Source: Bdellovibrionota bacterium (GTDB lineage Bacteria > Bdellovibrionota_G > JALEGL01 > JAGRMV01). Taken from it: a DNA stretch of 64,000 nucleotides. The DNA lies in NCBI GenBank assembly GCA_041391405.1, contig JAWKOB010000005.1, positions 6,297-70,296 of the forward strand, in the 5' to 3' direction. The position numbers and the translations under genes were made by a program. The notes beneath the pieces are model-generated. The model was not told where the DNA came from. It did no database searches and was given only the letters and a program-made list of their open reading frames with translations. The number at the start of each line of letters is the position of its first letter. Within the stretch, counting starts at the first letter, position 1. Below are positions 9,259 to 51,989 of this stretch, one piece after another.

Positions 9259-9903
9259 GTGGTAGTGAATCAAAGAAATTCACGTAACGCCTTCACATTA
9301 ATCGAACTTATTTTCGTGATCATTTTGGTCGCATTGATCACGACTGTCGCGATCCCGAAAGTTTCATCGACCCTGGGTTTGAACATCAAATCCAGCGTGC
9401 TTCGTGTTACTGGCTTTCTGCAAGCTGGCTATCAGCAAGCCATTCTGACGCACAAAAAAATCCGTGTGACCTTCAACATGGATACGGGTCAATACTGGGC
9501 CGAAAACATGGCCCCTGCTGAATCAATTCCATTGATCAATGAAACCACGAATTTGGACGAAGTTCTCAATACCTTTCGCAAACGCGAAGAAGAGGAAAAT
9601 TCCAACGATCCCGAAGAAATCAAGAAGCGCGAAGAGGCAAAGTTCCAAAAGATTGAATCGGTGGTGCTCAAATCCGGTCAAATCGAGCCTCCGCTGAAAA
9701 TCAAATCGATCATTTTCCCTGGCGAAGACAAGACAGAAACCCAAGGGACAGTTTCATTTTTCATTTCCGGATCTGGAATCAACGAAGAAGTCATCCTGTA
9801 CATCGCCCATGGCGACAGCGACAACGTTTACAGCATCATCTTCCCACCGATGACCGGCAAAGCCAAGATCGAGAAGGGAGAGTATGTCGCTTCCAAAAAA
9901 TAA
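9259..9903 (+). CDS. gspH: Minor pseudopilin, GspH-like
   Basis: Prepilin-type N-terminus RNAFTLIELIFVIILVALITTVAIP. Assigned by position directly after gspG. Confidence 0.6.
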   Translation: MVVNQRNSRNAFTLIELIFVIILVALITTVAIPKVSSTLGLNIKSSVLRVTGFLQAGYQQAILTHKKIRVTFNMDTGQYWAENMAPAESIPLINETTNLDEVLNTFRKREEEENSNDPEEIKKREEAKFQKIESVVLKSGQIEPPLKIKSIIFPGEDKTETQGTVSFFISGSGINEEVILYIAHGDSDNVYSIIFPPMTGKAKIEKGEYVASKK

Positions 9904-10468
9904 ACTCTCCGGCTTTACGATGGTTGAAGTGATGGCTGCAATGCTCATCCTTGCCATTGTGTGCGTCGCATATTCTGAAAATCAAGTCAGTGCGATCCAG
10001 CTGGTGAAAGCGACACGCTTTCGTGACACTGCTGTGATGCTGGCTCAGCAGCGTATGGCCGAAGTGAACTTTCTGGTTCAAAGCCGTGGTGTGGAGGAAA
10101 TCAAGGAAGATGAACGTGGTGACTTCGATTCCGAGAAATTCGAGGGATACACATGGCACATCACCAAGAAAATGGTTCCTGCTCCTGACTTTTCTGCCCT
10201 GCTTTCTGCCGCAGGCGCAGGTGACTCCGAAGAATCCGGTGGTCAACAACAACCAACCGATCTTTCAGGTCCAATGAAGATGATCATGGATGCCTGGGGC
10301 AAATCCATCATGGAAGTCAAACTTGAAGTCTTGTGGAAAGAAGGAGAGCAGGAAAAAAGTTATTCGATCATGACGCACTTCATGGCATCGAATGCCAATG
10401 CACAAATTCAGGGCGTGATCGGTGGATTGGCCGGAGCGGCAGCTCAGGCTGGTGGGGGCGCACAGTGA
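9884..10468 (+). CDS. gspI: Minor pseudopilin, GspI-like
   Basis: N-terminus LSGFTMVEVMAAMLILAIV. Assigned by operon position. Confidence 0.6.
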   Translation: MSLPKNKLSGFTMVEVMAAMLILAIVCVAYSENQVSAIQLVKATRFRDTAVMLAQQRMAEVNFLVQSRGVEEIKEDERGDFDSEKFEGYTWHITKKMVPAPDFSALLSAAGAGDSEESGGQQQPTDLSGPMKMIMDAWGKSIMEVKLEVLWKEGEQEKSYSIMTHFMASNANAQIQGVIGGLAGAAAQAGGGAQ

Positions 10469-12429: not shown

Positions 12430-14074
12430 ATGGCACAAAAGATCTTAGGCCTGGACATTGGCTCTCATTCGATCAAAGCAGCGCTCTTTGACACAGCGTT
12501 CCGCGTCTATACATTGACCGATCTTTTCCAATCCGCCCCATTGCATCTGGATGAAGCTCCACCCGAAGAGCACGACATCATCATCACAGAGTCGATTCAG
12601 CAGATGCTTCAAAAACAACATCGACACCAAAAACGTCATCACGGCATTGTCCGGGAAATTCATCAGCAATCGCATGCTCAAGCTTCCGCTTCCGCCAAAA
12701 CAATTGAGCAAAGTTCTGCCTTTTGAAATTGAGAACTACATTCCCTTTCCGTTGGAAGACTTGATCATCGATCATCACATCATCCAATCCAGCAAGACCG
12801 AAACGGTTTGTTTGGCTGCAGCTGCACAAAAAAACATCATCGAACATCACATTCATCTGCTTGGGAAAGTGGGCATACAACCTTCTTTCATCACATTTGA
12901 TACTCCTTTGCTTTACAACCTGAATCAACTGATCGGCGGTTCCGTCAAAACCTATGCAATCATCGATCTTGGCTATCAAAAAATCATCCATTTGTGATCG
13001 CCGATGGCAAACTTCTGCGCTGATCCGAACGCTCTACACCGAGTGTGTCATGATATCGACGAGGCGATTCGCAATGACATGAATCTCACCTTGAACAAGC
13101 CAGATAGTGAGGTAAAAGAAAAACACGGCATCCTCGAACTGGACAATCAACCACTCCGCAGCGGAGACCTGCAACGCCTCTCCACCAGTATCAAAAGCGT
13201 GATCGAATCCGCTTTTCCAAGAAATTTACCAATCCATGCATCTGTTCCGTTCACAAGATTGATTCCGGAAGATTCACAGCGCAATAACACGTTTTGTTCA
13301 GCGGAGGAACGTCTCTTCTTCGCACCTGCCGTGGAATACTTCACTCAATTGATCAACATTCCTTCCCAGCGATTGCATTTGCTCGAAGATCAAGATCCAG
13401 AACGTGCTTCACGTCCGAAAGAACCTCTCTTTGCCACGGCCGTAGGCATCGGCATGAAGGTTTCCGCGCGCGGAAAAAACGCGGCGCTCATCGAATCCAT
13501 CAATTTCCGCAAAGGCATTTTCGCATTCAATAAATCTCTGGGAGATTTCGAAGATAAACTCTGGTTCATCGGCAAATGGGTTCTTGTGATCTTCGCTGTG
13601 GCCTTCCTCCAGCTTCTTTTCCGGAATTACAACCTTCGCCATGAAAACAGCGTCGTCGAAAAAGCGGCCATCTCCGAGGTGAAGAAAATCATCCCGGATG
13701 ACAAATCCAAGTCGGGCAAAGCCGCACTCAAGAAGCTAGAAACCAAAATTCAAGAACTGCAGCAAAAACAGGAAGTCCTGACAGCCGGATTGAATCGCAC
13801 CACAGCGCTTGGCATTCTTCGCCAACTTTCCGTTCTTATCACCGAAGATATCCGTGTGGACACCAAAGAGCTTTCGATCGAACGCAACAAAATCACCATG
13901 CGCGGCGATACCGATGCATTCTCTTCGGTGGATCGCATCGTGACGAGTTTGCAAACCTTCCCTGAATTCACGCGTGTTGAAAAAGGTGATGTTCGGGACA
14001 CGTCGGATGGAAAAAAATCTTTTCAATTGACGATCCTCGTCGGTGAAGAAGGCGAAGAAAAGGGAAAAAAATGA
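12430..14074 (+). pseudogene. gspL: GspL (actin-like cytoplasmic domain, TM, periplasmic domain), split into 3 ORF pieces
   Basis: MAQKILGLDIGSHSIKAALFD at the start, TM WFIGKWVLVIFAVAFLQLLF, and C-terminal domain KELSIERNKITMRGDTDAFSSVDRIVTSLQTFPEF. The pieces are 12430-12726, 12551-12997 and 13004-14074. Confidence 0.7.
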
Positions 14075-14649
14075 TTCAGAATCTCATCGCCAAAATCGGT
14101 CTGGATCGACATATCGACAATGTGAAGAATTATTACTCGCGTTTGTCGGAACGTGAGCAGATGATGTTTCTATTGATTTGCTCCGGCGGCGCCGTTTTCG
14201 TATTGGCATTGATCTATTTCGCTGTAGCCGCTTCCAATGCCTCTCTTGCTTCGGACATCAAGAACAACCGAAAAGGGCTGCAGAATGTTGCTGAACTCGG
14301 TGCGAAGTATCGCGGATTGAGTCAAAACATTGATGATATCGAACGCATGATCGCCCAACTTCCACCCAACTTCCAACTCGGAACCGAACTGGAGGGTTTG
14401 GCCCAATCCAATTCAGTCAAAATCGAATCGATCAAAAATCGCCCCGGTTCTCCACATGAATTTTATGTTGAAAACCAGGCGCTGGTGACTGTCGAACAAG
14501 TTCAGATCAGGCCTCTGATCGATTTTCTTTTTGCAATCGAGAACTCAGGCAAACCAATGAGGATTTCGACATTGCAGATCAAACCAAACTTCAAGGATGC
14601 AAAACTGTTGAACGCCAACTTCATTGTTTCGGTGTTCCAGCAAAAATAA
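14071..14649 (+). CDS. gspM: GspM-like bitopic protein
   Basis: 192 aa with a single TM (MMFLLICSGGAVFVLALIYFAV). ATGA start/stop overlap with gspL. Assigned by operon position. Confidence 0.6.
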   Translation: MIQNLIAKIGLDRHIDNVKNYYSRLSEREQMMFLLICSGGAVFVLALIYFAVAASNASLASDIKNNRKGLQNVAELGAKYRGLSQNIDDIERMIAQLPPNFQLGTELEGLAQSNSVKIESIKNRPGSPHEFYVENQALVTVEQVQIRPLIDFLFAIENSGKPMRISTLQIKPNFKDAKLLNANFIVSVFQQK

Positions 14650-32385: not shown

Positions 32386-32557
32386 GATGGTTAAAAGACA
32401 TACCAGAGCTTGAAGGGGAAAACCAAGTAAACAGATTACATTCGTAAATAACTGATATTATTGTCTAAAATCCATTTTCATCCAACAAAAGAAGCATTGA
32501 GTCAAAAACCAAAATCTGATATGTTGCGAGCAAATTCAATAGAATTTAGGTCCTGCA

Positions 32558-32627
32558 GAAAATCTTCCCGCAGTCGAGGCGGTAGCCGGTTGGCCAGTGT
32601 TCAACCACCTTTGACAAGGAAGTTTTC
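32558..32627 (+). promoter_or_regulatory. Copy A of a conserved hairpin element (20-mer GTCGAGGCGGTAGCCGGTTG inside a 10-bp closing stem) in the 5' region of the lipoprotein gene
   Basis: GAAAA(t)CTTCC at 32558-32568 pairs with GGAAGTTTTC at 32618-32627. The 20-mer at 32573-32592 is identical to 47911-47930. Confidence 0.45.
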
Positions 32628-32659
32628 GAAAGGCCCTTTAAAGGAGTATCTGTCGTCGT

Positions 32660-33310
32660 ATGAATTTTGCAAAAAAGCTCGCGTGGGGGGTCATCATGAT
32701 GCAAGTCATGGGTAGTTCCTGCGCAAAAATTGATGATTTCGGAACAGCCTACCAATTGGAAGGTTTTACGGGTGTGGTTAAAGTCACACCGGGCATTCAA
32801 GGTGTAACAGCCAAAACTTATGCACCAGGAATCGTGTTTTTTAATAGCAACAAAAGCGGTACCGAGGTCGTTTTATCTCTTAGCCCAGATAACTTCTCGA
32901 TCTACTCCATTCTCCCGGAAGGTGACAATCAGGATCAATTCCGCAATGAAATGAAGAAAAAAGGTGTCAGCCGCCTGGATAAGCTTGATTTCTCAGGCTT
33001 TCGCGCAAAGGTTGATCCAAATGATTCCAAAAAAGTAAAATTTTATGACTTTGGTGACCAAAGTGAAGGCATGAAAAAGTTCAAATGGAAAGTCGAAGGC
33101 ACCGGTTTGATCGCTGGTCCGGATACTCACATTCAGTTGAAAATCTCAACCACAGTTGGGACTCTAAAAGAACTACTTCCGCGCCAAGTTTTGGAGGAAC
33201 TCGCTGCTCCAGAGGCAAACGAGTCCATGTATGAATCGGAAGACCTTGACGCAGTGGTCTATTTGGCTCGCATCGACATCCTCGGAGAATCCCTAACATT
33301 TGGATATTAA
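32660..33310 (+). CDS. Hypothetical lipoprotein
   Basis: Lipobox-like MMQVMGSSC near the N-terminus. 216 aa. I recognise no family. Confidence 0.55.
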   Translation: MNFAKKLAWGVIMMQVMGSSCAKIDDFGTAYQLEGFTGVVKVTPGIQGVTAKTYAPGIVFFNSNKSGTEVVLSLSPDNFSIYSILPEGDNQDQFRNEMKKKGVSRLDKLDFSGFRAKVDPNDSKKVKFYDFGDQSEGMKKFKWKVEGTGLIAGPDTHIQLKISTTVGTLKELLPRQVLEELAAPEANESMYESEDLDAVVYLARIDILGESLTFGY

Positions 33311-47413: not shown

Positions 47414-47608
47414 TTGAGCGATATAAAGCCCGGAAATAAAGGGCAAACGCTGGTTGAGTATGTGTTGCTTGTACCGGTGGTAAGTCTGTTCATTTATATG
47501 AGCTTCTTATTTTATCAAGGCTTCGTTCAAGGCAACCTCTATGGACGTACAGCACAGAACTATAACTATTACTCGGCGGAAGAAAATCCGGCCTACGGTC
47601 GAAAATGA
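47414..47608 (+). CDS. flp: Flp-family type IVb/c pilin 1 (TTG start)
   Basis: NKG-QTLVEYVLLVPVVSLFIY matches the Flp motif (G/xTxxEY followed by a hydrophobic stretch). 64 aa. Confidence 0.7.
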   Translation: MSDIKPGNKGQTLVEYVLLVPVVSLFIYMSFLFYQGFVQGNLYGRTAQNYNYYSAEENPAYGRK

Positions 47609-47663: not shown

Positions 47664-47852
47664 ATGATTAAGGTACTTAAAAAAATCAAAAACAAAGAAG
47701 GTCAGACCACACTTGAATACGCACTTGTGATCGGCGTTATCGTCGTCGGCGCAATCATGATGGGTCAACATTTCTTCGGTAAAGATGGCGCAGCCAAAGA
47801 TGTATTCGGCAACGCAATCAAAAACGCTCAAGACACTTTGAAAACAGAGTAA
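47664..47852 (+). CDS. flp: Flp-family type IVb/c pilin 2
   Basis: NKEG-QTTLEYALVIGVIVVGAIMM. AAGGAG lies 7 nt before the ATG. 62 aa. Confidence 0.9.
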   Translation: MIKVLKKIKNKEGQTTLEYALVIGVIVVGAIMMGQHFFGKDGAAKDVFGNAIKNAQDTLKTE

Positions 47853-47895
47853 CTCGAGAGGTTTTCTTCTACCGGGCAAAAAAGGTGGGCTTGGA

Positions 47896-47963
47896 GAATC
47901 ATTCCCACTGTCGAGGCGGTAGCCGGTTGATAAGTTCACGGTTACTTGGAACAGGAATGATTC
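47896..47963 (+). promoter_or_regulatory. Copy B of the conserved hairpin element, between flp2 and tadE
   Basis: GAATCATTCC at 47896-47905 pairs perfectly with GGAATGATTC at 47954-47963. The 20-mer GTCGAGGCGGTAGCCGGTTG lies at 47911-47930. Confidence 0.45.
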
Positions 47964-47990
47964 GCAAAGACCCAAATGATTATCTCCTCT

Positions 47991-48040
47991 CCGCTTGGAG
48001 TGGAAAGTTCTCGAGACTTTTCATTTCAAGCGGAGTTTTT
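47991..48040 (+). terminator. Terminator/attenuator-like hairpin between the pilin genes and tadE
   Basis: CCGCTTG...CAAGCGG with inner stem GAAAGT/ACTTTT, followed by agTTTTT just before ATG 48062. Confidence 0.5.
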
Positions 48041-48061
48041 ATGCAAGAGAGTTATAATTCT

Positions 48062-48679
48062 ATGATGAAGCGAGTGAAAAAATTCAGGTCAAGGCACGAC
48101 CGAACTCGCATTACTTCTCCCCGTTCTATTTCTTCTATTCTTCGATGCCGTTCAGGTCATCATTTTTTCTGCAATCTTCCACCATGACTCAGTATGCAGC
48201 GTTTGTTTCGGCACGCGCATTTCAGGTGTATGGCGAATCGAAATCTTCAAAGCATCAACTACCACAAAGTCGCCAGCCCTCATACACCAACGAGGGACAA
48301 ACCATCGCTGAAGCTGCAGCTGAAGCCGTGATTTGAAAGTTTGATGTGGGAGCAACGCGTCGTGTGAGAAGTTCTGGATCAGGTCAACTACCTCAATCGC
48401 GTGTATGAAGACGGAAACAACACCACCCATGGCGGTGGATTTTCACAAAAGCTCGACGGGTGTCGTTCGGGTGAATTTTGTGCCCATCCTCCTGAGTTGC
48501 GACCAAGGCAGCGGGTTGAGGTTCAATACTGCATGCCGATTGTATTTCAGGTATTGACAGTTTTCTTTGAAGCCGTCAAAGGCGAATCTCCATACACGGT
48601 CACTCAAGATGGTCGCACCTATTCTGGAGTCGCAATTTCACACAAAACCAAGTTCGGCCGCGAACCGGTGGAGCCATAA
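48062..48679 (+). pseudogene. tadE: TadE-like pseudopilin, frame breaks (first at the A6 run 48077-48082)
   Basis: MMKRVKK then, after a 1-nt shift, NSGQGTTELALLLPVLFLLFFDAVQVIIFSAI (TadE N-terminal motif). Later pieces lie in two other frames. Confidence 0.7.
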
Positions 48680-49998: not shown

Positions 49999-51453
49999 AT
50001 GTTTAGATTCAAAACAAAAATACTTGAGTGTGTCCCCGGACGCCAAGCACGTGCCGACCGACGGGTCGGGCAAAGCACGGTAGAACTTGCTTTGTTGCTG
50101 CCAACCCTCGCCTTCATGCTGGGCATGATCATCTACGCCTACAAAGTGAATTACAAAACCAATCAAATCACTACGGAAGCTTTCTCCGAGCGCATGTACA
50201 AATATCACATGGAAGGAAAATTCTATGACCCGATTCAGGGTGTGTATTTTCCCAATGGACAATATTCCGAGTTGATTCCTCCTGATGCTCTCATCGATCC
50301 AGGTGCAATTGCAGGAGAACTCGGCTTACAACTCATCACACAGCTTGGCTTAAGCAAGCTCTTTGATGCGCTCAACATCGACAACTCCACATACTATGGC
50401 GCTTTCGCGCAAGGTTTCACCTATTCGATCGCAGACTCCGCCGTGAATACTTATGTTCAAGATGGATCTCTTCAACAAATGAGCGCGGAAGATTTGGAAA
50501 ATGCAACCTGGGCAGGCTTGGCAAGTGCAGCGGCCAGCCACAATACCAGCGGAGATGGACGCACAGATAATGCAACGAGCACGTTCCAAGGTACAGATCC
50601 AACTGGCTCCAGTCTTCGAGAGTTTTTGGGGTCAGGCGTGCAAGCAGGTTTGATTGGATTTTTCAACAGCCACGGTGACTGGGGAGCAGCTGGCGCCAGC
50701 GCGGTGGGCGGCATGCTCAACTCTGACAGTTCCAAAAATTGGGTATCCACAGGAACCGACGGATTGACCGACTCCAACGGAACAGAAATTTTGCGTGGCG
50801 CGACCAAGGGCGCGGTTCAATCTTCCGTCAGTGGAATCTTTGGTGGAAACTGGGATGCCAAGACTGTCCGCAATTGGTGCCGCATCGGGCACCGTTCAAA
50901 CCGAAACTTTTGCCGAAACCTTCCACTCACCGGCGATGATCAAAAAACTCCGCGATGTACGGCACGTTCAATGGCGTTTTCCAGCGTGGTCAGCGGTGGT
51001 GATGGAACCAGCACACTTGTCTCTGCAGGTATGGGTGCACTCGGCAGTCCAGCAAACCGCCGGAGCACTCGGCGGAAGCGACACATTCAAATACCGCGCA
51101 GTCTCTACCATCGGCGGCGCAGCCAGGACAGATATGTTCAAGGCAATAGTCTGGAAGCCATTGGTATGGGCGCGCTCTCCGGCGCTGTGGGCCAAGGGAT
51201 GGGCTGGGCCGGAAACCAGGTTTCCACTTCTCTTTCCAACAGTTTCAATTCTTCGTCCTCAGGTTCCAATGGAACAAGCGTCAATGGCGCAACCACCGTT
51301 CTGGGCACAGAGCAAACCTCAGATGATCTGGCCAGCGACGACACATTCAACATCAGTATCGATGAAATTTTGAACGGTGCAAACGAAGGCGTGCTCAACG
51401 CTGAGACACTCGAATCATTCGAAGGGCTTCCTCCAGAGGGAGGTTCGGCATGA
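49999..51453 (+). CDS. Large TadE-domain protein with long Gly/Ser/Thr/Ala-rich C-terminal region (internal compensating frame shifts likely around 50790-51200)
   Basis: RRVGQSTVELALLLPTLAFMLGMIIYAY (TadE motif). The C-terminal 300 aa are low-complexity (GSGVQAGLIGFFNSHGDWGAAGASAVGG, SSSGSNGTSVNGATTVLG). The overlapping ORF 50795-51373 reads better locally. Confidence 0.6.
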   Translation: MFRFKTKILECVPGRQARADRRVGQSTVELALLLPTLAFMLGMIIYAYKVNYKTNQITTEAFSERMYKYHMEGKFYDPIQGVYFPNGQYSELIPPDALIDPGAIAGELGLQLITQLGLSKLFDALNIDNSTYYGAFAQGFTYSIADSAVNTYVQDGSLQQMSAEDLENATWAGLASAAASHNTSGDGRTDNATSTFQGTDPTGSSLREFLGSGVQAGLIGFFNSHGDWGAAGASAVGGMLNSDSSKNWVSTGTDGLTDSNGTEILRGATKGAVQSSVSGIFGGNWDAKTVRNWCRIGHRSNRNFCRNLPLTGDDQKTPRCTARSMAFSSVVSGGDGTSTLVSAGMGALGSPANRRSTRRKRHIQIPRSLYHRRRSQDRYVQGNSLEAIGMGALSGAVGQGMGWAGNQVSTSLSNSFNSSSSGSNGTSVNGATTVLGTEQTSDDLASDDTFNISIDEILNGANEGVLNAETLESFEGLPPEGGSA

Positions 51454-51989
51454 GAATCTTAAGCTGGATTTTGATTTTGGCCTTCACGGGATCGGCTTTT
51501 GCTCAAGGCAACCCGAGAATGAAGCTTCGTCCGAAAAAATATGCCGACATCGTCAAATCCGCGAACGAAATCCGTTCGCGTGAGCAACAAATTCGGGAAT
51601 ACTACATGCAGCTGGTGCTTCGCAAAGCTCAGATGGATGTGATCAAAATTTTAGAACGTCGTCGCATGTCCAACGACGACATTCAAAAAGTACTGGCCAG
51701 CGATCAGATGAAATCGTTTCTTACACGATTGGAAAAAAATCCAAAAATCAAGGCACGCGTTGAAGCGCATGTTCAACGTCTGGTTCGTCCTGGAGCCATC
51801 GAAGCTCATGTCATGGCCCAACGAAACAAAATCATTCAAAAACAACATGAGCAACTGCTCGTGGCTCAAAACGAACTTCGCAAATCCAAAACCTTCCGCA
51901 CGGAAGAAAAAGTTCACGAAAAAATGGATGATCGATCGCTTGCTGAAAAAACATGGGATCATTTGATGAAGGATTTGTACAAAGAGTGA
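51450..51989 (+). CDS. Hypothetical secreted coiled-coil protein inside the tad operon
   Basis: Signal peptide MRILSWILILAFTGSAFA. The rest is K/E/Q-rich helical sequence. ATGA overlap with the upstream gene. Confidence 0.6.
   Translation: MRILSWILILAFTGSAFAQGNPRMKLRPKKYADIVKSANEIRSREQQIREYYMQLVLRKAQMDVIKILERRRMSNDDIQKVLASDQMKSFLTRLEKNPKIKARVEAHVQRLVRPGAIEAHVMAQRNKIIQKQHEQLLVAQNELRKSKTFRTEEKVHEKMDDRSLAEKTWDHLMKDLYKE

Follow-up and report, generated by a model that had tools for sequence, protein, structure and literature searches.

Two covarying hairpins beside lipoprotein and flp pilin genes of a Bdellovibrionota bacterium are probably copies of a mobile palindromic repeat

The 64,000-nt stretch of Bdellovibrionota DNA analysed here (the window) carries two plus-strand hairpins built around the same 20-mer. 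The first, copy A, is located in a divergent intergenic region that separates hopanoid/squalene-synthase-like genes (minus strand) from a lipoprotein gene. The second, copy B, begins 35 nt after the stop codon of the flp pilin gene and lies between this stop codon and the flp terminator. The features of both loci are listed below, with bit scores from CM R1, a covariance model built from 18 copies of the element.

32497..32525, plus strand: putative sigma-70-type promoter of the lipoprotein gene, predicted from a -35 TTGAGT, a 17-nt spacer and an extended -10 TGaTATGTT
32549..32636, plus strand: full palindromic element of copy A, GGTCCTGCAGAAAATCTTCC ... GGAAGTTTTCGAAAGGCCC (sequence and folds; CM R1, 82.6 bits at 32540-32645)
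32558..32568, plus strand: 5' strand of the copy A inner stem, GAAAA(T)CTTCC (sequence and folds)
32569..32593, plus strand: conserved loop core of copy A, CGCAGTCGAGGCGGTAGCCGGTTGG, which includes the 20-mer (columns AGGCG..AGCC..TTG invariant in 18 copies)
32578-32587, plus strand: GGC-GGTA-GCC mini-hairpin (P2) within the copy A core; the P2 pairs never vary
32594..32617, plus strand: variable 3' part of the copy A loop, unconserved in sequence among copies and constant in length at 23-26 nt
32618..32627, plus strand: 3' strand of the copy A inner stem, GGAAGTTTTC (sequence and folds)
32660..33310, plus strand: lipoprotein-like gene, 216 aa, no Pfam domain, with the SD AGGAG at 32642-32646; its product has a 100% identical counterpart in a Bdellovibrionota MAG
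47664..47852, plus strand: flp pilin gene, 62 aa, 5' of copy B
47887..47973, plus strand: full palindromic element of copy B, GGGCTTGGAGAATCATTCC ... GGAATGATTCGCAAAGACCC (sequence and folds; CM R1, 84.5 bits at 47878-47981)
47896-47905 / 47954-47963, plus strand: copy B inner stem, GAATCATTCC/GGAATGATTC (sequence and folds)
47910..47929, plus strand: identical 20-mer of the copy B core (exact match)
47974..47982, plus strand: 3' tail of copy B, AAATGATTA (family consensus after the stem, (C)AAATG.TTA)
47989..48040, plus strand: flp intrinsic terminator, a 20-pair hairpin followed by a T run, conserved in orthologs with and without the element

The 20-mer, GTCGAGGCGGTAGCCGGTTG, occurs exactly twice on the plus strand of the window, at 32573-32592 and 47910-47929, and found no match in 100 dinucleotide-preserving shuffles, even when three mismatches were allowed. 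The first-pass annotation, which had reported the duplication, placed the 20-mer of copy A correctly and that of copy B one nucleotide too far, at 47911-47930. Its description of the surroundings holds in both copies: TTCCC plus 3 nt precede the 20-mer, and 24-25 nt followed by GGAA come after it. The enclosing 10-bp stem with three compensatory changes is also as described, the inner stems of copies A and B differing at three pairs, all of them compensated. The full stems are longer than had been noted; when more flank is folded, each hairpin gains an outer helix, GG.CC/GG.CC, beyond a 3x3 internal loop. The distance of 68 nt given between copy A and the lipoprotein ATG holds for the last base of the 20-mer; the hairpin stops 23 nt short of the ATG, which is at 32660. 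Copy B, described as lying between flp and tadE, is located in the flp 3'UTR, 5' of a strong intrinsic terminator, and is not a tadE leader. A scan of the 64-kb window with CM R1 revealed no copies beyond A and B.

Outside the window the element is dispersed. A degenerate pattern derived from five copies, TTCCN{6,9}AGGCGNNAGCCNNTTGRN{21,27}GGAA, identified a third copy, on the opposite strand, in the orthologous tad locus L142 (L numbers designate the loci compared), as well as 41 metagenome loci. CM R1 gave 74-101 bits for true copies and at most 20 bits for the other 24 pattern loci, and also found a diverged copy (49 bits) 5' of a PilZ gene in L123. From the orthologous loci and the metagenome scan, 16 distinct insertion sites of one family were obtained, at the following places.

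Lipoprotein 5'UTR (one old insertion point, or two)
flp 3'UTR
ftsQ/ftsA junction: L148 1362-1463, minus strand, overlapping the 3' end of ftsQ
Downstream of rplS
5' of ABC-F ATPase, AHSA1-family, DUF4412 and PilZ genes
Adjoining atpB
After an inositol monophosphatase gene
Within a tad-locus gene: L142 13875-13980, antisense and in frame inside the gene at 13869-14501 (also L143 and L168)
Beside tRNA genes: L145 1461-1564, L175 2513-2619 and L177 1097-1200 (= L179); Ser-GGA, Phe-GAA and Ser-GCT

The neighbouring genes are not of one functional class, and the positions occupied include a 3'UTR, an operon spacer and a CDS. Of the 13 sites whose context is clear, 12 have the element in the sense orientation with respect to local transcription (12:1; one-sided binomial p ~0.002). 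Copies in 5'UTRs stop short of the SD, their ends lying 23-30 nt upstream of the start codon. The three tRNA-linked copies, which are independent, run in the same direction as the tRNA, with 10-15 nt left before its mature 5' end (14 nt before a tRNA-Phe and 11 nt before a tRNA-Ser; one copy lies between tRNA-Arg and tRNA-Ser), an arrangement that could stem from preferential targeting or from a function in the processing of tRNA leaders.

Two of the 16 sites involve coding sequence. The L148 element supplies the last 12 codons and the stop codon of ftsQ, the TAG coming from the GGTAG of the core, and the ftsA start lies 102 nt downstream. In L142 (and in L143 and L168), an in-frame insertion adds 31-32 codons right after the start of a secreted protein of the tad locus, thereby lengthening the n-region of its signal peptide; the L142 protein is 210 aa long, against 179 aa for the window ortholog (51450-51989), which is devoid of the element. 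L142 thus contains two copies, on opposite strands and 3.6 kb apart.

As to the host, exact-sequence look-ups of the flanking FtsA, of the adenosine deaminase and of a 90%-cluster relative of the GST encoded beside the L177 copy led to the same 645,737-bp contig; at least three copies are probably present on this one 646-kb contig, in one genome. The 90% cluster of the flanking FtsA includes a Bdellovibrionota MAG protein. The degenerate pattern had no match in viral contigs, and blastn with the consensus found none in the plasmid and phage collections. The 17-mer GTCGAGGCGGTAGCCGG has at least 120 chance matches in genome contigs, from high-GC genomes (Streptomyces, Acidimicrobiia and others), and among the matches listed none carries the 20-mer or the TTCCC context. 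A search of the literature on Bdellovibrio repeats and MITEs turned up nothing relevant. With Rfam 15, the gathering threshold returned only a tRNA, and nothing overlapped the elements at E values up to 10, in keeping with the earlier statement that the hairpin was not recognised as a known riboswitch class. This is a previously undescribed repeat family of one clade of uncultured Bdellovibrionota. The first-pass annotation had named many copies at random genomic positions as the mark of a REP- or MITE-like repeat rather than a regulator, and many copies at unrelated positions are what the orthologous loci and the metagenome scan revealed.

Filled and empty alleles were found at four orthologous sites, namely A, B, the PilZ site and the tad gene, with conserved surroundings. 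At the A site, the element is present in the window, in L121/L122 (83% protein identity) and in L123/L124 (62%), and absent from L126 (66%), L125, L129 and L130, the promoter motif and the SD being kept regardless. At the B site, it is present in the window and in L142/L143/L165, while L144, L132-L141 and L187/L188 are empty, the terminator coming directly after flp. L129 and L130 lack the PilZ-site element of L123 in their orthologous spacers. Since terminator, promoter and SD are kept in filled and empty alleles alike, the surroundings work either way. At the B site, filled alleles are ~97-102 nt longer than empty ones, and the tail of copy B is counted as inserted DNA because the empty alleles lack it.

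The motif upstream of the lipoprotein gene (32493-32525), GAAGCATTGAGTCA-N-TCTGATATG / GAAGCATTGAGTCA-N10-TCTGATATGTT, is conserved in each of the seven orthologous upstream regions and occurs nowhere else in the window. A palindrome-like TGAGTCA is combined in it with the extended -10, and it is kept in orthologs down to 54-56% protein identity; judging from this pattern, it may comprise a promoter and a site for a transcription factor. When the L123 element (9877-9981) is compared with that of the window (32540-32645), the two lie ~10 nt apart relative to a common CAAATTCA flank. In both lineages, that of L123/L178 and that of the window, the element has a short direct repeat of its own (ATTCA and TTTA), and the closer relative L126 is empty. 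The lipoprotein leader has undergone either two independent insertions or one old insertion followed by precise losses.

The element consists of a hairpin of 88 nt and a tail of ~10 nt, which is within the size range of prokaryotic MITEs (~50-600 bp), and has no coding capacity. Every copy has arms of 17-20 bp, whose sequences drift widely yet stay complementary (14-24 pairs between the arms of each copy), so that terminal inverted repeats, as in MITEs, are present throughout. The arm consensus is 5' GGCTCTGCAGAATAATTCC and 3' GGAATTATTCTGCAGGCC(C). The best-conserved segment is the 5' part of the loop, a 25-nt core beside the left arm that reads CAAAGTCGA-GGC[GNNA]GCC-GGTTGR (short form CAAAGTCGAGGCG-GNNA-GCCGGTTGR). 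The 3' part of the loop (~23 nt, range 23-26) is A-rich and unconserved, and the 3' tail, (C)AAATG.., follows the consensus in 10 of 17 copies. Where the window copies have GTAG in the core, GGGAG, GTTAG or GAGAG stands elsewhere in the family.

Covariation was assessed on a MAFFT alignment of 18 family members. Paired cells amount to 88.6%, versus 77.7% in shuffled alignments and at most 50% in slid ones, and in 11 of the 18 stem pairs both partners have changed (43 cells). The score for covariation, 0.315 versus 0.115, was reached in none of 500 shuffles. The hairpin first proposed from two copies is consequently real, conserved and covarying, with its stem supported across the 18 members. 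Covariation is limited to the closing stem: the 3-bp P2 is invariant, and the minimum-energy folds of the interior differ from copy to copy. G.U pairs are rare in the stem (8 of 351), with no clear excess or strand asymmetry relative to A.C mismatches (4), and many of the double changes are transversions. The rarity and lack of bias of the G.U pairs, together with the transversions, fit a DNA-level process or a templated correction from one arm to the other.

Orthologous copies inform on how the element evolves in place. Compensated changes have arisen in situ, alongside uncompensated ones, in the pairs formed by copy B of the window and that of L142, and by the A-site copies of L123 and L178. 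Copy A of the window and its L121 ortholog have identical arms, and their loop interiors differ at 11 of 48 positions, about as much as the non-conserved upstream spacer. As the loop drifts at approximately the rate of a neutral spacer, the conservation of the core among copies, judged from these alignments, is probably owed to their descent from an active source and not to constraint acting on every locus.

Several candidate functions for the conserved positions were rejected. An outward promoter with the invariant TTG as its -35 is contradicted by the hexamers found 17 nt downstream (TAATAG, AAAAAG, GACAAG, etc.), in which the T6 of a -10 is missing. Pairing of CAA with TTG on either side of P2, as a helix or pseudoknot, was rejected as well, since the changes seen in CAA are not compensated in the invariant TTG. 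Likenesses to hammerhead, twister or boxA were discarded because the matching bases fall in the paired, variable stem.

Taken with their unrelated sites, their filled/empty polymorphism, their inverted arms, the in-frame insertion and the 3'-end fusion, both hairpins are probably copies of a non-autonomous palindromic mobile repeat of ~90-100 bp, similar to a MITE. Dispersal, filled and empty sites, inverted arms, intragenic insertion and gene fusion are hallmarks of such palindromic repeats (PMC10969869). The family would have spread through transcribed, non-coding DNA of one Bdellovibrionota clade; copy A would have landed between the conserved promoter and the SD of the lipoprotein gene, and copy B between the flp stop codon and its terminator. 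The element would be moved in trans by an enzyme encoded elsewhere, for which the leading candidate is a DDE transposase of the IS903/ISAba12-type (IS5-family) group, because the arms resemble the inverted repeats of that group. The complementarity of the arms might be kept because mobility or stability needs a hairpin or inverted repeat. Alternatively, it could result from quasi-palindrome (template-switch) correction of one arm by the other.

The resemblance to IS903 was quantified using the inverted repeat GGCTTTGTTGAATAAATC, which was verified on an IS5-family element of a Klebsiella plasmid. The arm consensus is identical to it at 14 of 18 positions, and the arms aligned to it score 6.25 on average, versus 2.3 +/- 1.3 for shuffled arms. 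A tblastn search of the ~0.5 Mb of loci examined found no autonomous parent IS and no IS903-like transposase. A permutation test for target-site duplications gave a weak signal at 3-5 nt (p ~0.01-0.02, uncorrected; ATTCA, TTTAT, TTTA and CAAT are cases), and the 9-bp duplication expected for the IS903 group is not supported, there being no signal at 7-9 nt.

Close parallels are found among MITEs derived from IS5-family/IS903-group elements, for example MITEAba12 of Acinetobacter, a 113-bp element with the TIR GGCTTTGTTGCACAAA that is mobilised by a GGCTTTGTTG-type repeat and has kept its target-site duplication in only 40% of copies (PMC6382973). Like it, the present element measures ~100 bp, is non-coding and AT-rich, has terminal repeats starting with GGCT.TG, is dispersed mainly in intergenic DNA, and has produced a 3'-end gene fusion with a new stop codon. 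Unlike MITEAba12-type elements, it shows no sign of a 9-bp duplication and no co-resident parent IS in the loci examined, and its arms are far more variable, yet always compensated, with a conserved core in the loop. These differences, the missing parent IS and the weak duplication signal among them, count against the reading as a mobile repeat. A single sequence-specific transposase could hardly recognise arms as divergent as these, and the best-conserved part is the loop core and not the termini, the reverse of a classical MITE. Moreover, the sense orientation at 12 of 13 sites and the compensated changes in place are a hint of selection on RNA.

This hint leads to an alternative that I consider possible although unlikely, namely that the element is mobile but functional at the RNA level, having spread by transposition and been kept as a putative generic RNA signal. 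The signal could be a site of RNase III or RNase E processing, a 5' or 3' stabiliser, or a protein-binding site that tunes or insulates neighbouring cistrons and tRNA precursors, and selection on the RNA would preserve the stem together with the sense orientation. With its 17-20 bp, the stem has the size of an RNase III substrate, which speaks for this alternative, as do the co-orientation of 12 of the 13 clearly placed copies with transcription, the position of the three tRNA-linked copies 10-15 nt before the mature 5' end, the 5'UTR copies that stop 23-30 nt before the start codon and spare the SD, and the compensated changes between orthologous copies. Correia and ERIC elements provide precedents (PMC10969869, PMC2649163). 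Several observations argue the other way: the near-neutral drift of interior and core between copy A and its L121 ortholog, the scarcity of G.U pairs and their lack of strand bias, the inconsistent fold of the interior, the absence of the element from the same sites in close lineages, and the one copy that is antisense within a CDS.

A second alternative, rather improbable in my view, concerns the mode of transposition: as in REP/REPIN systems, a single-stranded DNA hairpin would be moved by a Y1/HUH transposase (RAYT or IS200/IS605-like) that reads structure and a short motif, and not by a DDE enzyme. In its favour, the stem varies freely in sequence while pairing is kept, and a short motif beside or inside the hairpin is the conserved part; the asymmetric single-stranded tail recalls the tailed REPIN intermediate, compensatory changes are documented in the hairpins of RAYT-mobilised REPINs (PMC3116915), target-site duplication is not clear, and the cores of the window copies contain GTAG. 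The present element further shares with REPINs a hairpin size of ~70-110 nt, frequent compensatory changes, vertical persistence and restriction to extragenic DNA. However, the GTAG is not conserved in the other copies, and the 5' GT[AG]G and two conserved hairpin ends of a REP unit were not found. The architecture differs as well: REPINs have conserved REP ends around a variable spacer, hundreds of copies and a linked RAYT gene, whereas here the ends vary, the core is conserved, the copy number looks low and the loci examined showed no RAYT gene. Strict replication-strand specificity, for its part, is made unlikely by the opposite-strand copies of L142.

A more specific version of the RNA hypothesis, which I hold to be quite doubtful, is that the 25-nt core, CAAAGUCGA-GGC[GNNA]GCC-GGUUGR, borne by a long helix, constitutes a mobile structured-RNA module read by some cellular factor (RNA polymerase, an RNA chaperone or an RNase, for example). 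If so, sense copies would be portable signals for processing, stability or read-through in mRNAs and tRNA precursors, copy B might set the amount of transcription that passes the flp terminator into the tad genes, and the family would be one of transposable post-transcriptional control elements in predatory bacteria.

Finally, it is highly improbable that the hairpin is a dedicated cis-regulatory RNA, riboswitch-like or a leader bound by an sRNA or protein, for the lipoprotein and tad pilus genes, as first proposed: both window copies are indeed in sense beside envelope and pilus genes, their stem covaries, and the terminator after copy B could serve as an expression platform, but the family adjoins unrelated genes and tRNAs at 16 sites, with filled and empty alleles and an antisense in-frame copy, the flp terminator is complete and the lipoprotein promoter and SD are conserved in orthologs lacking the element, covariation is confined to the closing stem, and Rfam gives no match. 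The distribution largely refutes both a riboswitch and a regulator devoted to the lipoprotein or tad genes.

With the two hairpins read as copies of a mobile repeat, their effect on the lipoprotein and flp genes is most likely generic, that of a long hairpin in the lipoprotein leader and in the flp 3'UTR. Once transcribed, the element would add a long RNA hairpin to the message, which may incidentally alter its stability or processing, in the manner of Correia and ERIC. Correia elements (CREE/NEMIS) of Neisseria and ERIC/IRU of enterobacteria are palindromes of ~100-150 bp that are co-transcribed with their neighbours and form long RNA hairpins, processable by RNase III or RNase E, with changes in mRNA level as a result (PMC2649163, PMC10969869). 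Like the present family, they differ in presence and absence between strains, and by analogy they offer the best model for the action of copies A and B on host transcripts, where RNase processing would be the predicted event. The sequence is unrelated to that of Correia elements, which have conserved 26-bp inverted repeats and TA duplications, and the strong sense bias is particular to the present family. A likeness of another kind links the L142 copy at 13875-13980 to the Rickettsia palindromic elements (RPE), which insert in frame in a CDS without destroying the protein (PMC10969869). In contrast to RPE, a single in-frame case is seen here and most copies are extragenic, and sequence and host are unrelated.

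For annotation, recognition of the family guards against listing the two hairpins as a candidate new riboswitch, and provides a covariance-model-ready description of a repeat that is new to Rfam and to the plasmid and phage collections. The family remodels the leaders of tRNAs and the UTRs of genes for the envelope, the pilus and cell division, gives ftsQ its stop codon and extends a signal peptide in frame. Its combination of sense bias and compensatory evolution in place makes it a reasonable test case for selection on RNA versus palindrome correction at the DNA level.

Some further features of the tad locus and of the window may be recorded. A second small Flp-like ORF (64 aa, MSDIKPGNKGQTLVEYVLLV...) is located just 5' of flp, at 47414-47608. 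The long flp terminator is conserved in all orthologous tad loci (window 47989-48040; L142 ~10360-10415; L144; L188), a conservation that, as far as sequence comparison goes, implies that read-through from flp is attenuated before tadE and the other genes of the operon. The tadE-like gene of the window (48061-48676) is split over frames 1, 2 and 3, as judged by tblastn against the intact L142 and L132 orthologs, and is either a pseudogene or the product of frameshift errors in the MAG assembly. Lastly, GC skew is negative (C>G on the plus strand) in nearly every 4-kb bin of the window (1-64000), whatever the orientation of the genes.
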